Source of the DNA: Candidatus Saccharimonadales bacterium
GTDB lineage: Bacteria; Patescibacteriota; Saccharimonadia; Saccharimonadales; EFPC-124
Direction: 5' to 3'
Length of the DNA: 64,000 nucleotides
Assembly: GCA_050730875.1 (NCBI GenBank)
Contig: JBOHNX010000001.1
Coordinates: forward strand, 13,827-77,826
Shown here in pieces: positions 8,353 through 49,615 of the stretch. Every line of letters starts with the position of its first letter. The first letter of the stretch is position 1. A model generated the notes under the pieces. The model was not told where the DNA came from, did no database searches, and worked only from the letters and a program-made list of their open reading frames with translations. A program made the position numbers and the translations under genes.

Positions 8353-8943
8353 ATGATTGACGCCTTATTTGGTTCAAAAACACGAGTAAAACTTTTACAC
8401 CTGTTCCTTAACAATCCGAACAGAGCTTTTTATGTTCGTGAAATTACCCGTAAAATTGACGAACAAATTAACTCGGTTCGTCGCGAGCTTGCCAACATGA
8501 TGAGCGTGGGCATTATAAAAAGTGACAGTTCGAACAACCGGTTATACTACGAGGTCAATCAAGACTATCAACATTACGAATCCCTTCGAGCAATCTTTGC
8601 GGATGGTTCGGTGGACGCAGAAGGCGCAGAAGCGGTTTCTAGCGACTGGACCAAACGTCTTAAAGTGCTTGGCGATGTGCGAGTTGCCTTATTAAGCGGT
8701 GGTTTGGTCCGCGGTAGCCAAAGTGATGTAGATGTACTGCTAGCGGGGAATATCAACAAAACGCAGGCTAAGAAGTTTATAAAAGAACTAGAGGAAGAAG
8801 AAGGCCGACAGCTAAATTACACAATCATGCCGTATGAAGATTTTTATTATCGATTAAGTATTAAAGATCGTTTCATTACCAGCGTTATTAATGGTAAGTT
8901 CACATTGCTGCAAGATACAGAGCATATACTATCAGAGGCTTAA
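8353..8943 (+). CDS. Winged-helix regulator fused to a minimal nucleotidyltransferase-like domain
   Basis: The N-terminus resembles ArsR/MarR wHTH (FYVREITRKIDEQINSVRRELANM). The C-terminus has GSQSDVDVLL, a GS...DxD NTase signature. Confidence 0.5.
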   Translation: MIDALFGSKTRVKLLHLFLNNPNRAFYVREITRKIDEQINSVRRELANMMSVGIIKSDSSNNRLYYEVNQDYQHYESLRAIFADGSVDAEGAEAVSSDWTKRLKVLGDVRVALLSGGLVRGSQSDVDVLLAGNINKTQAKKFIKELEEEEGRQLNYTIMPYEDFYYRLSIKDRFITSVINGKFTLLQDTEHILSEA

Positions 8944-10580: not shown

Positions 10581-10736
10581 GTCCTGCTTACTAAGCATGC
10601 AGGTGATATGATTTTTCCTGAACAATCGAACCGCGCATAGGGAGTCCTAGATCAAAATTTCCGTGGAAATTTTGTGCGGACACCCACTTGTCTATACAAG
10701 CGGGGAATATCTATCGCCTGTACACGTAAGCAGGAC
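10581..10736 (+). ncRNA. Candidate rod-like structured RNA immediately upstream of tRNA-Pro (6S-like? unassigned)
   Basis: TATAAT at 10569-10574. The ends pair over 11 bp (GTCCTGCTTAC at 10581-91 with GTAAGCAGGAC at 10726-36). The rod continues with CAGGTGATA (10600-08) paired to TATCGCCTG (10712-20), plus further helices and internal hairpins. Confidence 0.3.
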
Positions 10737-19299: not shown

Positions 19300-22200
19300 A
19301 TGACAAATTTGCTGATAGGTTTCATCATTGGTACAACCTTTCTGCTCCTCTTTCTGTATGTTGGCTATTGGCAGTATCGTAAGGTATTGCGCGAAGCAAA
19401 GAACTACGAGCGTGGACTTAAAATGGTCCCGCTGCTTATTCATCTGCCTCCCTCGAGCGACGACATTGAGGCAGGGGGTCGGGATGCGCGAGATATTGCC
19501 GAGGAAGCTATTTCTCAGGCGCAGACCATGTATAACATTATCTCGAGTACGGCCACCAAGGGCTTTAAGAGCAAACTGTACGGCCAGCGTCACCTCGCGT
19601 TCGAGATTGTCGCAAGCAGAGGGCTTATCCATTATTACGTCGTCGTGCCACTGGTTCTGCTCGATGTTATTAGGCAGGCGGTTATAGCCGCGTACCCCAC
19701 TGCCAGATTAGAAGAGTGTGAAGAGCACAACATTTTTAGTCCAGTTGGAAAAATTAGTGGGACAATTGGTGGTGAGCTTACGTTGAGGAAAGAATTTAGC
19801 TTCCCGATCGCAACCTACCAAGAGACGAAACGCGATGCAATGCAGGCAATATTGAATGCTCTTTCGACCCTAACAAAAGAAGACGGGGCTGCAGTCCAGA
19901 TTTTGCTAAGGCCGGCCCACGAAAAATGGACAAAAACTTCGCTGGCTAGAGCAGGCAAGATACGAAAGGATAAAGGTGTTAAGTCGGGGGTGGCGAGTGT
20001 GCTTTCCATGAAAGACCTAGCGGAGGCGCTTTGGAAGCCGCCGGAGACGAAAGATGTCAAACCTGAAGATAAACAACTAAGTTCACTAGAGCAAGCAATT
20101 GTTGATGCTGTCGAAGATAAAACCAGGTATCCTGGTTACGAGATACTTATACGCATTATAGCCTCATCGAATACTGCGGTGCGTTCACAGGCTATCCTAA
20201 AGAACATCGTTGCAGCTTTTTCTCTCTTTGATTCACCAAGCAAAAATGGTTTTAAATTCTCGCTCGCAAAAAATGTTGAGCAATTCGCTACTTCATTTAT
20301 ATTTCGTTTCTTTCCCCAGGAAATATCACAGAGCGTTTTGAACAGTGTAGAACTTGCAACAATATTCCATTTTCCAGACCAACGCAACACGCCTACCTCA
20401 CAGGTTCAGCGACAAGCGTCCAAGCAGGTTGATGGGCCGTCGCAAATGCTCGATCAGGGCGTGTTGTTTGGATACAACCTGTTCCGGGGTGTAAAGAAAG
20501 AGATACGTCTAGGTGATACCGACCGACGCAGACATGTCTACATAATTGGTCAGACAGGAACTGGTAAATCAGGTCTTTTGGAGAACCTCGCCTTGCAAGA
20601 CATGCTGGATGGCAAAGGCTTTGCCTTTGTTGATCCGCATGGTGATTCCGCCGAACGCCTGTTGGGCATGGTGCCAAAAGAGCGGGTAGAGGATGTCATT
20701 TACTTTTCTCCTGGTGATATGGATCACCCCATGGGGCTGAACCTATTTGAGTACAAGACACCTGACCAGCGCGACTTTTTGGTTCAGGAAGCTATTGCGA
20801 TGCTGTATCGGCTTTACGACCCTGGCCATACGGGCATCATAGGGCCACGCTATGAAAACTGGTTTCGTAATGCCGCATTAACAATCATGAGTGACCCGGC
20901 TGGAACAAGCTTTATTGATGTACCACAAGTATTCAATGACAATGACTTTGCGAAAGAAAAGCTCAAACACGTCACCAACCAGGTCGTGCTCGATTTTTGG
21001 AACAAAGAAATGGCACAGACTAGCGACTATCATAAGTCAGAGGTACTTGGCTGGTTTGTGAGCAAGTTCGGTGCATTTTTGTCCAATGACATGATGCGCA
21101 ACATTATTGGGCAAACAAAATCTTCATTTGACCTCCGAGAGATAATGGATAACAAGAAGATACTGCTAGTGAATCTGTCCAAGGGTAAGACAGGCGAATT
21201 AAATAGCCAGCTTTTGGGTATGATTTTTGTAATGAAATTCCAAGTTGCTGCTATGAGCCGCTCTGATATTCCCGAAGAGGAGCGAGTTGACTTCAGCTTA
21301 TACGTTGATGAGTTCCAGAACTTTGCGACCGAATCATTCGAAACGATTCTATCTGAGGCACGAAAGTATCGTCTGAGCTTGATCTTGGCTAACCAGTTCA
21401 TGACGCAGCTTAGTGACAAGATCCGGGAAGCAGTTATCGGTAACGTCGGTACAGTTATTTCTGGGCGAATAGGCACGACAGACGCAGAGCTGATGGCAAA
21501 ACGTTTTACGCCTACATTTGACGCAGAAGATCTCACGAAACTGCCAAACTTTGAGACGGTTGCTACGGTTATGATCAACAATGTGCCCTCTGCGCCGTTT
21601 AGCATGTCCCTAATACCACCTTTGGGTAAACCTAACCCACAGCTCGCAACTGCCCTTAAACGCTTGTCGTACGCGAAGTACGGGCGTCCACGCGCAAATG
21701 TTGAGCGGGATATATTTAAACGTCTTCGCGCAGGTGATGATGCACGTTCAGCACGCCAGGGTGCATTAAAGCGCCCATCGGACACTCAAACATCTACGGG
21801 GTCATCTTTCCTAGATGAATGGCTGGCAAAGCGCAAACAGCAGACGGCTACGGCCGCACCACCAAAACAGGCGCCAAAACCGCGGACTACCAGTCCTCAA
21901 ACTCCATCAACAGATGCGCAGAAGCCACTCGTTATGCAATCTGAGCCCACCAAAGCTGATGAGACTCCTCAACCAACACAACCGCAAACGCCACCACCAC
22001 ACAAACCTCTGTATGCAGATCTTCGATTAAAACGGCTCCAGGAACAGGGGATAGGAGGCAACGTTGCTTTTAACCAGCCATCGCAGCACAAAGCACCGAG
22101 CGTGCATGATTCGACAATGCTTGAAGAGGCGCTTGCAAGCACGGCCTCTAGTGACGTCATGAAGGATGAGCAAACGAAGCGTCAGGCAGAACCAGGCGAG

Positions 22201-35850: not shown

Positions 35851-36045
35851 ATGGCAGGAACTAAAGCAGGCGGCCAAAAGGCTGCTCTGACAAACAAGTC
35901 GCGTCATGGTAAAGACTTTTATGCACGCATTGGTGCAAATGGTGGCCGCAAAGGTACAACTGGTGGCTTTGCCGCAAACCGCGAGCTTGCTCGCGCTGCT
36001 GGCCGCAAAGGTGGTATGATTAGCCGCCGCACCAAAAAAGCTTAA
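35851..36045 (+). CDS. KGG-repeat general stress protein (YciG/GsiB-like)
   Basis: 64-aa ORF with repeated GG-K/R-KG segments (GANGGRKGTTGGFAANRELARAAGRKGG). Confidence 0.65.
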   Translation: MAGTKAGGQKAALTNKSRHGKDFYARIGANGGRKGTTGGFAANRELARAAGRKGGMISRRTKKA

Positions 36046-36518
36046 AGACGAGTCCGTTTTAAGCGACAAAACAAGGCATCGTTTACATGCCACAAACACC
36101 TACAGTTAATACACCTGTAGGTGTTTGTTTTTGTTTGGAGCCCGTTCTGCTTACATTTGGGGCAGGTGCTGCGTTCGTGAAGCCAGCCACGGTATGTGTC
36201 GAGCTGGTCCTGGATGTAATTATCATCCATCGCAAGGTCGTAGCGTTTTGCGAGCGTCTTGGCTGCGTAGTGCCAGGCTTCGGTTTCGCACCTTAGAAGC
36301 TGTATATCGTGTTCGTAACCTTGGTGGTCCAATTCACCGTGAGCAATTTCGTGTAGTAAGGTCCAGATCTGTTTTTCATCGGTTAGCGGCAAGTGGGTTA
36401 TTGTGCGGTTTTGGGGTGACCAACGGAAAAGCTCACCTTCCTCAAAGACATAGGCTTCAAAGTCATTCTTAATGCGTTCAACTAGTTTGCTGATGTGTAG
36501 CATAGTAGTAGCAGCCAT
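36042..36518 (-). CDS. Putative HExxH zinc metallopeptidase-like protein with a C-terminal Zn-ribbon
   Basis: Contains LLHEIAHGELDH and CPKC...CINCRC. It shows a 4-nt convergent overlap with the KGG gene and overlaps the ROK gene end. Confidence 0.45.
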   Translation of the reverse strand: MAATTMLHISKLVERIKNDFEAYVFEEGELFRWSPQNRTITHLPLTDEKQIWTLLHEIAHGELDHQGYEHDIQLLRCETEAWHYAAKTLAKRYDLAMDDNYIQDQLDTYRGWLHERSTCPKCKQNGLQTKTNTYRCINCRCLWHVNDALFCRLKRTRL

Positions 36519-37281
36519 AAAGCACAGCCTCCTCGGGGTGTTTTGCTTTGCGAAGTTCTGGTTGAGATATGTAATGGGGGATACGACGTTTTAGCTGTTC
36601 TTGCAGGAGGTGCTGGAATTGTTCGAACTGAGTACTTACACCGCCTCCAAAAACGATCACAGATGGTTGCAACATAGGGATAATGGCGCCCAAACCTATA
36701 GCGAGGTGTTCGGCAACCCACTGCCATTCTTGGGGCTCGTGAAGCTCCTTGGCCATCTTATTAAAATGCTGCTTAATGGCTTTGCCAGATGCGAAATCTT
36801 CCCATTCCTGCCATTTATCTTCGTGCCAAAAGATCATATGGCCAGCTTCGCTTGGTGAGAGTGCCGGAAGCAAACGACCCTGCACATATATCCCACTTCC
36901 AATGCCCGTGCCGAGCGTTATGTATACGCCTAGGGGTGGTGTTTTAGGCAGTGCATTGATTTCCGCAAGGCCCGCGAGATTTGCATCGTTTTCGATATAA
37001 ATTGGACAGTTGTAATGCTCGGTCAGAAGCCGCTTTAGCGGAAGGTTGTGCCAAGGCAAGTTGCCGCAACGTACGATGGTTCCTTTATCATCAACCACAC
37101 CAGGCACACCAATAGAAAGAGCCGAAATTGAATTAAACTGTTCGAGTTGACGGGTAAGTTCCTGTAAAAACTCAGCCGGATCGGCAGACGTAGCGAAACG
37201 GAGCTCATTGACGGGCTGCAAGGCTTTGTCAAACTGAGCAATAAGGGTTTTTGTACCTCCAACGTCAACCGCCGTAATCAT
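36478..37281 (-). CDS. ROK-family sugar kinase (glucokinase-like)
   Basis: Contains the N-terminal MITAVDVGGTKT and the ROK signature region IENDANLAGLAE...GTGIGSG. Confidence 0.82.
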   Translation of the reverse strand: MITAVDVGGTKTLIAQFDKALQPVNELRFATSADPAEFLQELTRQLEQFNSISALSIGVPGVVDDKGTIVRCGNLPWHNLPLKRLLTEHYNCPIYIENDANLAGLAEINALPKTPPLGVYITLGTGIGSGIYVQGRLLPALSPSEAGHMIFWHEDKWQEWEDFASGKAIKQHFNKMAKELHEPQEWQWVAEHLAIGLGAIIPMLQPSVIVFGGGVSTQFEQFQHLLQEQLKRRIPHYISQPELRKAKHPEEAVLYGCYYYATHQQTS

Positions 37282-37331
37282 GAGCCGTTGGCTCCTGGCA
37301 GCAAGTTATTGTTACACAAAGGAAAAATCAT
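37278..37331 (-). CDS. Mini-ORF 3 (MIFPLCNNNLLPGANGS), ATGA-coupled to the ROK start
   Basis: Translated by hand. The ATG at 37331 is preceded by GAGGA. Its TGA (37278-80) overlaps the ROK ATG (37279-81). Confidence 0.3.
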   Translation of the reverse strand: MIFPLCNNNLLPGANGS

Positions 37332-37381
37332 AGGACTACGTCCTCTGGCAGCATTAAAATATTACATGGTTGAAAAATCAT
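37328..37381 (-). CDS. Mini-ORF 2 (MIFQPCNILMLPEDVVL)
   Basis: The ATG at 37381 is preceded by AGGAG plus 8 nt. Its TGA overlaps the ATG of mini-ORF 3. Confidence 0.3.
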   Translation of the reverse strand: MIFQPCNILMLPEDVVL

Positions 37382-37428
37382 GAGCTTCGCTCCTGGCAGC
37401 AAATCATCTTTAATAGCGGAAAAATCAT
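37378..37428 (-). CDS. Mini-ORF 1 (MIFPLLKMICCQERSS)
   Basis: ATG at 37428, and its TGA overlaps the ATG of mini-ORF 2. It matches the rpsU leader ORF at 12 of 16 residues. Confidence 0.3.
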   Translation of the reverse strand: MIFPLLKMICCQERSS

Positions 37429-37512
37429 GGTCCTAGTGTAGCATGCGTGGCTTTAGTTTGCGCTTTTCGATAAATGGTTTTATTATTTAATAAAGAAGAG
37501 AAGTGAGGGGAT

Positions 37513-37917
37513 ATGGAAGCATCTAAAACAGGGAATGTACGGTCACTCCTTTTATACGGAGCTCTTTTAGTAGGTTTACTCGTTGTAGTGGTCCTAGGTG
37601 TATTGTGGGCGAAGAATCGAGCCGACTATTATTACGCGAGTCAGCAAGCGCCTGCCGCTGAACAGCAGCAAGATCAGCCAGAAGGCGGAACACCAGCTGC
37701 CCCAAGCGAAGACAAGAACAAGGGTCAGCAACCAGCGCAGCAGCCTAGTACTCCACCGGCTCCCGATACAGCTCGAGCACCCTCTACAGGGGCAGAAACA
37801 CCGCGCGTACCGGCTACTGGTCCAGAAGACTTTGTACTCATGACGTTCGCCTTAGCTATAACAGCATTTATGTTAATGCGCTACTTGCAGGCGCGCCGCC
37901 GGCTTACGACTCTTTAG
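37513..37917 (+). CDS. Small Pro/Gln-rich surface protein with a sortase-like C-terminal signal
   Basis: 134-aa ORF. N-terminal TM helix, low-complexity middle, and a C-terminal VPATG followed by a hydrophobic helix and RRR. Confidence 0.55.
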   Translation: MEASKTGNVRSLLLYGALLVGLLVVVVLGVLWAKNRADYYYASQQAPAAEQQQDQPEGGTPAAPSEDKNKGQQPAQQPSTPPAPDTARAPSTGAETPRVPATGPEDFVLMTFALAITAFMLMRYLQARRRLTTL

Positions 37918-49352: not shown

Positions 49353-49403
49353 ATGATTTTTCCGTCGTTAAATATTAAGTGCTGCCAGGAGCGAAGCTCA
49401 TGA
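49353..49403 (+). CDS. Mini-ORF (MIFPSLNIKCCQERSS), ATGA-coupled to rpsU
   Basis: Translated by hand. The 3' 26 nt, TGCTGCCAGGAGCGAAGCTCATGATT, are identical to the junction at 37376-37401 on the minus strand. The TGA overlaps the rpsU ATG. Confidence 0.35.
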   Translation: MIFPSLNIKCCQERSS

Positions 49404-49615
49404 TTCAAGTTACCCGTAAAGACGAGAAAGAAGCAGTCGAGAACCTGATTCGCCGCTTTAACCGCAAGGTGCAGCAATCTGGCGTTCTTTCGCGCGTAAA
49501 GAGCCTGCAATATTTCGAGAAGCCAATCAGCAAGCGCGAGCGTCGTGAACGTGCGATTGTTCGCCGTGCCCGCAAAGCAGATAAACTCAAGCGAATTCGT
49601 TTGGGTCAGCGCTAA
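49400..49615 (+). CDS. rpsU: 30S ribosomal protein S21
   Basis: Reads MIQVTRKDEKEAVENLIRRFNRKVQQSGVL...RRERAIVRRARK. AGGAG lies 8 nt upstream of the ATG at 49400. Confidence 0.9.
   Translation: MIQVTRKDEKEAVENLIRRFNRKVQQSGVLSRVKSLQYFEKPISKRERRERAIVRRARKADKLKRIRLGQR

Follow-up and report, generated by a model that had tools for sequence, protein, structure and literature searches.

What are three short open reading frames (ORFs) doing when they are stacked head to tail on the start codon of a sugar kinase gene, and how might they have come to be there? The locus lies in a 64,000-nucleotide stretch of contig JBOHNX010000001.1 (assembly GCA_050730875.1), hereafter the window, from a metagenome-assembled genome (MAG) of a Candidatus Saccharimonadales bacterium. 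The ORFs belong to an array of three cassettes ahead of a ROK-family kinase gene, and these units are members of a dispersed repeat family of 47–53 nt across Saccharibacteria. We propose, at a probability of roughly 0.68, that the cassettes are a repeat of the kind typified by mycobacterial interspersed repetitive units (MIRUs) and act as a stop–start relay for ribosomes; we infer both translation and mobility from constraints on their sequence. The components of the locus, all on the minus strand, are:

37435–37443, minus strand: ancestral extended −10 element, TGCTACACT, separated from the first ATG downstream by 6 nt and conserved across orthologues.
37382–37428, minus strand: cassette unit 1, 47 nt; mini-ORF 37428–37378 (MIFPLLKMICCQERSS, then stop), Shine–Dalgarno AGGAG at 37394–37390, hairpin at 37392–37382.
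37332–37381, minus strand: cassette unit 2, 50 nt, of the B-type described below; mini-ORF 37381–37328 (MIFQPCNILMLPEDVVL, then stop), hairpin AGGAC-GTA-GTCCT at 37344–37332.
37282–37331, minus strand: cassette unit 3, 50 nt; mini-ORF 37331–37278 (MIFPLCNNNLLPGANGS, then stop), Shine–Dalgarno AGGAG at 37296–37292, hairpin at 37294–37282.
36478–37281, minus strand: ROK-family sugar kinase gene (Pfam ROK, E = 1.8e-37), its ATG overlapping the TGA of mini-ORF 3.

Four ATGATT starts, at 37428, 37381, 37331 and 37281, are spaced 47, 50 and 50 nt apart, and minus-strand positions 37428–37276 can be written ATGATT..(47 nt)..ATGATT..(50 nt)..ATGATT..(50 nt)..ATGATTACGGCG. The three mini-ORFs ahead of ROK have 16–17 codons, and the TGA stop of each overlaps the next ATG as ATGA. 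An earlier reading of the letters alone (the sequence-only reading) had described exactly this layout, and it stands on re-reading. It had also described, correctly for all three junctions, a shared block followed by hairpin stems that differ in sequence and stay paired: copies of TGCTGCCAG lie at 37401–37393, 37353–37345 and 37303–37295 (minus strand), and the hairpins are GAGC-GAA-GCTC (37392–37382), AGGAC-GTA-GTCCT (37344–37332) and GAGCC-AAC-GGCTC (37294–37282), with computed folding energies of −4.9, −6.3 and −6.8 kcal/mol. As it further noted, TGCTGCCAG encodes Cys-Cys-Gln in unit 1, whereas units 2 and 3 read it as Leu-Pro. The ROK N-terminus MITAVDVGG is kept in orthologues, which marks the ATG at 37281 as the true start of the kinase. 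Three occurrences of TGCTGCCAG in the array compare with about one 12-mer match expected by chance across the window, and the composite cassette pattern has an expectation of 0.00 (100 shuffles). A profile search over the window and the loci gathered up to that point returned each unit of the array at E = 1e-10 to 2e-13. Tandem Repeats Finder reported no repeat at the array because the units are too divergent.

Three adjacent units invite the explanation that they arose by a neutral local tandem duplication, or by faulty assembly, at the ROK locus alone; the sequence-only reading had itself named an artefact as an outcome that would undo it. The independent Logan assembly of SRR27067773 is indeed broken inside the array, exactly at the junction of units 2 and 3. 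One contig (L058) carries the promoter with units 1 and 2, another (L001) carries unit 3 with ROK, and positions 1–9 of L001 and the end of L058 share only 9 nt, TCCTATGAT. No repeat of assembler-word length accounts for the break, which could reflect low coverage or population heterogeneity in unit number. Between them, these contigs reproduce the promoter, all three units and ROK, so the array is not an assembly artefact. As for duplication, the units are only about 60–70% alike and each is closer to copies elsewhere than to its neighbours, which rules out a recent local event; a copy also stands at a second locus of the window, and related arrays occur in many other assemblies. The dispersed copies and the independent assembly refute this explanation for practical purposes, and we consider it highly improbable.

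The second locus of the window comprises the following.

49353–49399, plus strand: fourth cassette copy, 47 nt (MIFPSLNIKCCQERSS, then stop; E = 5e-15), directly ahead of the gene for ribosomal protein S21.
49400–49615, plus strand: ribosomal protein S21 gene (Pfam Ribosomal_S21, E = 6.9e-11), starting ATGATT (ATGATTCAAG), its ATG overlapping the cassette TGA.

This copy is 87% identical to unit 1 from 12 kb away, and its 3′ 26 nt are identical; an exact-protein look-up with the S21 protein gave no match. Further copies were sought with one exact-pattern scan each of public genome and metagenome collections, followed by a profile search; the window's own genome was not among the matches of the genome-collection scan. 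The yield was 24 full units in 16 arrays, distributed over the window and 14 other Saccharibacteria-type contigs, and the absence of the motif from every related genome, which the sequence-only reading had offered as grounds for rejection, was not what we found. Three matches in the genome collection covered the whole unit, all of them in Saccharibacteria MAGs (L010, L015 and L019). The remaining exact genome matches cover the searched words only, lack the hairpin and downstream ATGAT, and look like chance; a scan of viral contigs gave no matches. A 25th unit (L047, 1660–1709, plus strand), ahead of ftsE, was found later and lies outside the 24-unit analyses. It keeps the 3′ block and differs in its 5′ part (ATGATTGTGACG..., MIVTKSNTK...), and its FtsE shares 96–97% identity with that of L046; part of the family thus escapes scans for an exact pattern.

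All 17 arrays (the 16 plus L047) sit at a gene start or intercistronic junction and are co-oriented with the gene. The downstream genes encode PilN-like proteins (8 loci), FtsE (4, including L047), RmuC, an ABC-F ATPase, a membrane protein, S21 and ROK. Three units are present in the ROK array, L029 and L037, two in L043 and L045, and single units elsewhere. Variable tandem copy number, which the sequence-only reading had suggested, is thus seen as one-, two- and three-unit arrays at different loci.

Several partial resemblances were also recorded. Cassette-like sequences at L021 1485–1560 and L023 463–540 (both plus strand) have the usual 5′ block and a TGCTGCCAGGAGCG(A/C)AGC block, then GTGATTTTTGTTCCAAA(A/T)... 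and a very short ORF, with no recognisable gene, and could represent either copies in decay or a related subfamily. Within the window, a lone ATGATTTTTCC 11-mer (10608–10618, plus strand), about 140 nt upstream of tRNA-Pro and downstream of the promoter-like site TGTTATAAT, and a weak profile match at 21220 were treated as chance, since neither comes with the remainder of the unit.

The composition of the ROK array bears on how it was built. Unit 1 is closest to the S21 copy, and unit 3 is closest to unit 1 of L045 (82% identity), which precedes a pilN-like gene in another metagenome. The three nearest relatives of unit 2 include the middle units of the three-unit arrays L029 and L037. Unit 2 is of the B-type (CCAGAGGAC...; CCAGAGGACGnAG(T/C)CC), which forms the middle unit of all three three-unit arrays (L029 3524–3678, plus strand; L037 1399–1245, minus strand; and the window, 37381–37332, minus strand). 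These arrays come from different assemblies and precede unrelated genes, and the B-type was not seen as a single unit or adjacent to a gene. Array composition may follow a rule, for example that neighbouring hairpins are not identical. A stack of different members fits repeated insertion at an ATGATT that each unit would regenerate.

The clearest support for insertion comes from filled and empty versions of the same site. Every insert has ATGAT(T) at both ends; because a unit follows an ATGAT(T) start and ends in a second ATGAT(T), the start of the host gene is duplicated. All 17 downstream genes start (A/G)TGAT. Since coupling needs only ATGA, the fifth base looks like the signature of a target site or microhomology. 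At ROK, the nearest orthologues (57–61% identity) have the same synteny and are cassette-free, with an intergenic region of 80–89 nt compared with 231 nt in the window, that is, about 84 nt plus 147 nt of cassettes. The orthologous loci read ...(c)aTGCTACACT, 6 nt, ATGATTAC, without a Shine–Dalgarno site; in the window an identical TGCTACACTaggacc-ATGATT is separated from ATGATTACGG by the 147 nt of cassettes. At ftsE, a unit lies between TGCTAyAAT + 7 nt + ATGATT and ATGATTCT in four loci (L046, L047, L024 and L033), and three others (L048, L050 and L056; FtsE 88–93% identical) have the −10 element, 7 nt and ATGATTCT with no unit; in the FtsE tree, loci with and without a unit are intermingled. 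At the pilM–pilN junction, the pilM TGA overlaps the first cassette ATG in six filled loci, and the empty L059 (PilM 86% identical to that of a filled locus) shows a plain overlap, agaATGATTCAG. In the L060 group pilN starts ATGGTC, so there is no ATGAT target, and there is no cassette. The cassettes are thus polymorphic for insertion, and the first ATG of every array falls at a pre-existing start, recognisable by a −10 element 6–7 nt upstream, by the gene's own Shine–Dalgarno or by overlap with the pilM TGA.

The position of the units at start codons is less telling as evidence of function than it first appears. The window has 28 ATGATT sites outside the cassettes, of which 22 fall within genes, 3 in the rRNA operon and only 1 in truly intergenic sequence. 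This census weakens the argument that exclusive start-codon association is strong evidence of function, because an ATGAT target combined with purifying selection can yield the same association. One apparently unoccupied target was observed in the window: the gene at 8353 (plus strand) has an ATGATT start six bases after TATAGT and looks leaderless, with no cassette.

What the ROK gene looked like before insertion can be read from its promoter. The extended −10 TGCTACACT shares the TGnTAnnnT form with the RNA-gene promoters of the window, where leaderless-looking starts are common, and stands at the same distance from ATGATTAC in the cassette-free ROK loci L002/L003, L005 and L006. Because it sits at a fixed 6–7 nt from the ATG, we take ROK to have been leaderless before insertion; the same geometry predicts that the present transcript is leaderless and starts at or near A37428. 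A consensus promoter scan gave no site in the ROK leader region, so the promoter call rests on conservation among orthologues. The sequence-only reading had assigned this stretch to a fourth, degenerate junction left by a decayed cassette; that assignment falls, as the stretch is the ancestral extended −10, kept in orthologues that have no cassette.

The intergenic region is bounded on its other side by a divergent gene:

37513–37917, plus strand: membrane-protein gene, outside the element, with synteny kept in relatives.

This gene has an apparent promoter of its own within 37445–37512 (plus strand), comprising TTGCGC, a 17-nt spacer and TATTAT, followed by a GAGGGG Shine–Dalgarno; the GCGCAAA block of this segment is kept in cassette-free orthologous loci. 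At its 3′ end, ROK shares 41 nt (36478–36518, minus strand) with the beginning of the following gene (158 aa, 36042–36518), an overlap also present in the orthologous loci L002 and L005.

Alignment of the 24 units shows almost no variation in the 5′ block, ATGATTTTTCC, or in the 3′ block, TGCTGCCAG-GAGG, after which come the hairpin and ATGAT; between the two blocks lie about 17 nt that vary freely (74% A+T). Read as a ribosome would meet it, a unit offers a start codon, 15–17 stop-free A+T-rich codons, TGCTGCCAG, a Shine–Dalgarno partly buried in a 4–5 bp hairpin with a three-base loop (nearly always GNA), and a TGA overlapping the next ATG. Unit lengths are 50 nt (19 units), 47 nt (2), 49 nt (2) and 53 nt (1), so that 22 of the 24 are 2 mod 3 (47, 50 or 53 nt) and preserve the ATGA overlap; the 47-nt form is shorter by 1 nt in its middle and by 2 nt in its hairpin. 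Counted over the 24 units, the three frames contain 1, 39 and 27 stop codons, respectively. The frame is open in 23 of 24 units, against a mean of 13.2 when the variable middle is shuffled, and none of 5000 shuffles reaches 23. The reading frame and its stops are therefore under constraint.

The hairpin covaries across the family. In its alignment 97.4% of cells are paired, with compensatory changes at 4 of 5 pairs; none of 500 shuffles equals this, and slid controls give 24–53%. Stem variants include GAGGC/GCCTC, GAGGT/ACCTC, AAGGT/GCCTT, AGGAC/GTCCT, CGGGC/GCCCG and GAGCC/GGCTC, with stems of 4–5 bp and energies of −4.9 to −8.2 kcal/mol over the family. The covariation that the sequence-only reading saw in three stems is therefore borne out far beyond them. 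The consensus fold additionally pairs CA with the UG of the start codon, bases that are invariant and so give no covariation signal. The whole leader folds no better than its shuffles (z = 0.07), which argues against a long-range structured leader, and Rfam gave no match at E up to 10 in 37200–37560 and nothing at gathering score at either cassette locus. Taken together, the length rule, the avoidance of stops and the covarying hairpin indicate that passage of the ribosome matters for these units.

It might be asked whether it is the peptide that is kept, with the mini-ORFs encoding functional small peptides of the form MIFPxxxxx(M/V)LPGGEAS; the open frames and the recurrence of N- and C-terminal residues are what such an explanation has in its favour. 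The 47-nt units and L010 and L022, however, read the conserved block in another frame (CCQERSS or CCQEA), the variation within that block has no synonymous bias, the middle five residues are unconstrained, and compensatory changes in the hairpin alter the peptide, for example from GGEAS to EDVVL or AGEAR. With two frames in use for the block, and residues that change whenever a stem is compensated, the peptide is not itself what selection acts on, and we regard this explanation as very unlikely. The emphasis of the sequence-only reading on nucleotide rather than peptide conservation captured the main constraint.

The same anatomy has a superficial likeness to programmed translational bypass of the T4 gene 60 or mitochondrial byps type, in which the ribosome would take off at the first ATT and land some 50 nt further on, at the matching ATT: the units are of about that length, bear a matched ATG ATT at both ends, and have a hairpin and a Shine–Dalgarno-like element before the landing site. 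Yet the codon after the take-off ATT is TTT rather than a stop, the nascent peptide at take-off would be two residues long, and the supposed gap is an open frame (in 23/24 units) that ends in ATGA with a full Shine–Dalgarno and ATG, none of which a bypassed gap needs. We find this explanation scarcely credible.

On the relay that we favour, transcription from the ancestral extended −10 TGCTACACT would give an mRNA beginning at or near the first AUG (37428), and ribosomes would initiate there as on the original leaderless ROK mRNA. A ribosome reading mini-ORF 1 would melt the hairpin, finish at UGA and begin anew on the AUG that overlaps it, aided by the exposed Shine–Dalgarno, and the relay would repeat through units 2 and 3 until the ribosome reached ROK. 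The hairpin would limit independent entry at the internal starts, so that the gene would stay dependent on its original initiation signal, and the insert would be nearly silent, perhaps with some loss at each step. The cassettes are thus most likely insertions that keep the host gene expressed, near-neutral passengers that possibly damp ROK output to some extent.

The sequence-only reading proposed that a relay of coupled mini-ORFs could tune or gate ROK. The relay half of this proposal accords with an open frame ending in ATGA, kept throughout the family; the half that makes it a leader of ROK in particular does not hold. The related explanation at the level of the family is a host-evolved regulatory leader, in which mini-ORFs and Shine–Dalgarno-hiding hairpins form a signal-responsive attenuator, translational or transcriptional, whose unit number gates or tunes expression. 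Burial of the Shine–Dalgarno, together with the pairing of the start codon in the consensus fold, is what a translational switch would look like, and the terminator-like AUGAUUUUU after the hairpin at internal junctions speaks for a transcriptional one: the hairpin of unit 2 is followed by ATGATTTTTC, and this one of the three ROK-array junctions was flagged as terminator-like. The U-run follows the hairpin only at internal array junctions, never before the gene. The conserved MIF(P) start and strong end blocks suggest reading by a factor or the ribosome, and one of the arrays lies ahead of a gene of the ABC-F class, in which control by leader peptides is common. Against this, one kind of cassette stands ahead of the unrelated S21, pilN, ftsE, rmuC and ROK genes, close orthologues manage without it, and the middle codons vary freely. 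The stems are also short, the whole-leader fold is unremarkable, and the requirement for ATGAT at host genes, beyond mere ATGA, has the look of a target-site signature, not of a functional need. Because the cassette precedes unrelated genes and is lacking from ROK orthologues, tolerated insertion is favoured over a dedicated ROK gate, and we judge a host-evolved attenuator unlikely; any regulatory role of the cassettes is putative.

Transcription might instead begin inside the units. Each would then be a portable promoter and ribosome-binding site, of sigma-70 type with its own short-leader mRNA, laid out as ATGATT for a weak −35, a 17-nt spacer, TAnnnT for the −10, a G+C-rich discriminator formed by GCTGCC, and the start close to AGGAGG. 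TAnnnT is present in 19 of 24 variable regions (12.0 expected; 2 of 2000 shuffles reach 19), and in 13 of 24 units its last base coincides with the T of TGCTGCC. The tRNA-Asp promoter of the same genome has a comparable form (TTGATT, 17–18 nt spacer, TAGTAT), and a promoter would account for the conservation of GCTGCC. However, the supposed −10 is the least conserved part, with the A at position 2 in about 64% of units; unit 1 and the S21 copy of the window lack TAnnnT, and the consensus scan was negative in the ROK leader region. A promoter is not needed within the pilM–pilN operon junction, and it would leave the stop-free frame, the 2 mod 3 lengths and the ATGA overlaps unexplained. This explanation is quite unlikely.

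Several observations weigh against reading the cassettes as mobile insertions that act as a ribosome relay. Given the enrichment of −10-like TAnnnT in the variable part, transcription may begin independently within a unit. Two of the 24 units (L010 and L022) break the exact ATGA overlap. The end blocks ATGATTTTTCC and TGCTGCCAG are about 93–100% conserved, compared with 70–81% identity in adjacent ftsE coding DNA, and this conservation, beyond what the Shine–Dalgarno, hairpin and ATGA account for, points to a further recogniser, which may be an enzyme that mobilises the units, a factor that binds them or a function as promoter. Indeed, the Shine–Dalgarno, stem and ATGA need neither TGCTGCCAG nor TTTTTCC. 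Pairing of TGCTGCCAG with the 16S 3′ tail (...GGATTACCTCCTTTCT) was considered and is unconvincing beyond AGGAGG, and a one-mismatch search with TGCTGCCAG gave no match in the orientation complementary to 16S or 23S rRNA. In tandem arrays the end blocks form one 33-nt junction centred on ATGATT, which would look as a recombination site is expected to look. No transposase or recombinase was identified for the cassettes, the contrast of filled with empty sites could have arisen by precise loss between the ATGATT direct repeats instead of by gain, and the units have no terminal inverted repeats, as none of the 3 inverted pairs in the region comes from opposite unit ends. Finally, because the pattern that retrieved the copies came from this window, the diversity of the family is under-sampled.

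The closest described counterparts are the MIRUs (Supply et al. 1997, as described in PMC12548453, PMC3184786 and PMC2734929). These are described as mobile repeats that insert at start codons, with an internal ORF coupled to the gene by a 4-nt overlap (PMC12548453; PMC3184786). They measure 40–100 bp, occupy about 41 loci, occur in tandem copies, some polymorphic in number, and are known from empty and filled sites with short direct repeats and G+C-rich internal inverted repeats (PMC3184786; PMC2734929). The cassettes match on each structural point: a dispersed unit within 40–100 bp, head-to-tail arrays, gene orientation at gene starts and intercistronic junctions, a small ORF in each unit with 4-nt overlaps to the adjoining stop and start, sites both filled and empty, short direct repeats at the ends and a G+C-rich internal inverted repeat. 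As with MIRUs, they are read as mobile insertions that spare host expression through translational coupling. The claim of the sequence-only reading that no leader of such architecture had been described must accordingly be given up, since MIRUs precede it (PMC12548453; PMC3184786).

The differences are equally definite. MIRUs belong to Actinomycetota, whereas the cassettes are found in Saccharibacteria (Patescibacteria); the direct repeat is ATGAT(T), 5–6 nt, rather than 4 nt; and the cassettes have an explicit, covarying Shine–Dalgarno-hiding hairpin and a frequent association with leaderless promoters. Sequence kinship is not expected given the A+T-rich core, and the two are likened by structural criteria alone. 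Between-strain variation in copy number is the hallmark use of MIRUs, whereas cassette arrays were compared across different loci. Because both phylum and sequence differ, we call the units of this Saccharimonadales MAG and its relatives MIRU-like rather than MIRUs.

Other known systems share single features. Mini-ORFs opened by a 5′-terminal upstream AUG (uAUG), and termination–reinitiation coupling at ATGA overlaps, are established (PMC4965119; PMC6728339). The likeness lies in a 5′-terminal AUG that opens a short ORF ahead of a Shine–Dalgarno-led gene and in a 4-nt stop/start overlap with a Shine–Dalgarno upstream; those systems are single and locus-specific, whereas the cassettes are dispersed, repeated and stack in tandem. 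Repetitive extragenic palindromic (REP) sequences and bacterial interspersed mosaic elements (BIMEs), miniature transposable elements with inverted repeats (MITEs) and palindromic derivatives of the insertion sequences IS200/IS605 resemble the cassettes as small non-coding repeats with a G+C-rich hairpin, target-specific insertion and presence/absence polymorphism. IS200/IS605 elements insert beside a 4–5 nt sequence. The cassettes differ from all of these in their single 13-nt hairpin, strict orientation and position at the start codon and open internal frame. Their ends, ATGATTTTTCC and GCCTCATGATT, are not complementary, unlike those of a MITE, and the internal hairpin is the sole conserved covarying pairing. 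REP/BIME elements are extragenic palindromes of 21–65 bp, largely stem, that occur in either orientation and usually downstream of genes, whereas the cassette hairpin takes up 11–13 nt of a 47–53-nt unit, and all copies lie at start codons in gene orientation. Rickettsia palindromic elements are selfish repeats tolerated in expressed genes, where they preserve host reading and are translated in frame within the host protein. A cassette is instead a separate mini-ORF that would hand the ribosome on. A literature search on Saccharibacteria together with leaderless transcription, repeats or coupling found nothing relevant.

The cassette family is therefore real and more general than first thought, and it is not unprecedented; what is new is a MIRU-type system in Patescibacteria. 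MIRUs have long been used as typing markers, and their movement and function are still unsettled. A second, presumably sequence-unrelated family of the same kind in another phylum suggests that start-codon insertion combined with a 4-nt overlap is a general strategy. The Saccharibacteria family offers a cleaner study system, with a short defined consensus, a covarying hairpin, an explicit ATGAT target and leaderless hosts, and its conserved junction and explicit target could lead to the mobilising activity. A more speculative possibility, which we consider less likely than not, is that the cassettes are an active or recently active mini-element that homes to start codons. ATGAT would be its target, the junction TGCTGCCAG-GNA-loop hairpin-ATGATTTTTCC would be the site for a putative recombinase, possibly acting on a single-stranded DNA hairpin, and stacked units would form a heritable copy-number dial on the translation of leaderless or coupled genes in the reduced genomes of Patescibacteria. 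Were this true, MIRU-type elements would be a general convergent strategy with a tractable recognition site and not a mycobacterial oddity. For annotation, the units lengthen "intergenic" regions in Patescibacteria and can break short-read assemblies; for the study of translation in these organisms, the family offers natural experiments on leaderless initiation and re-initiation.

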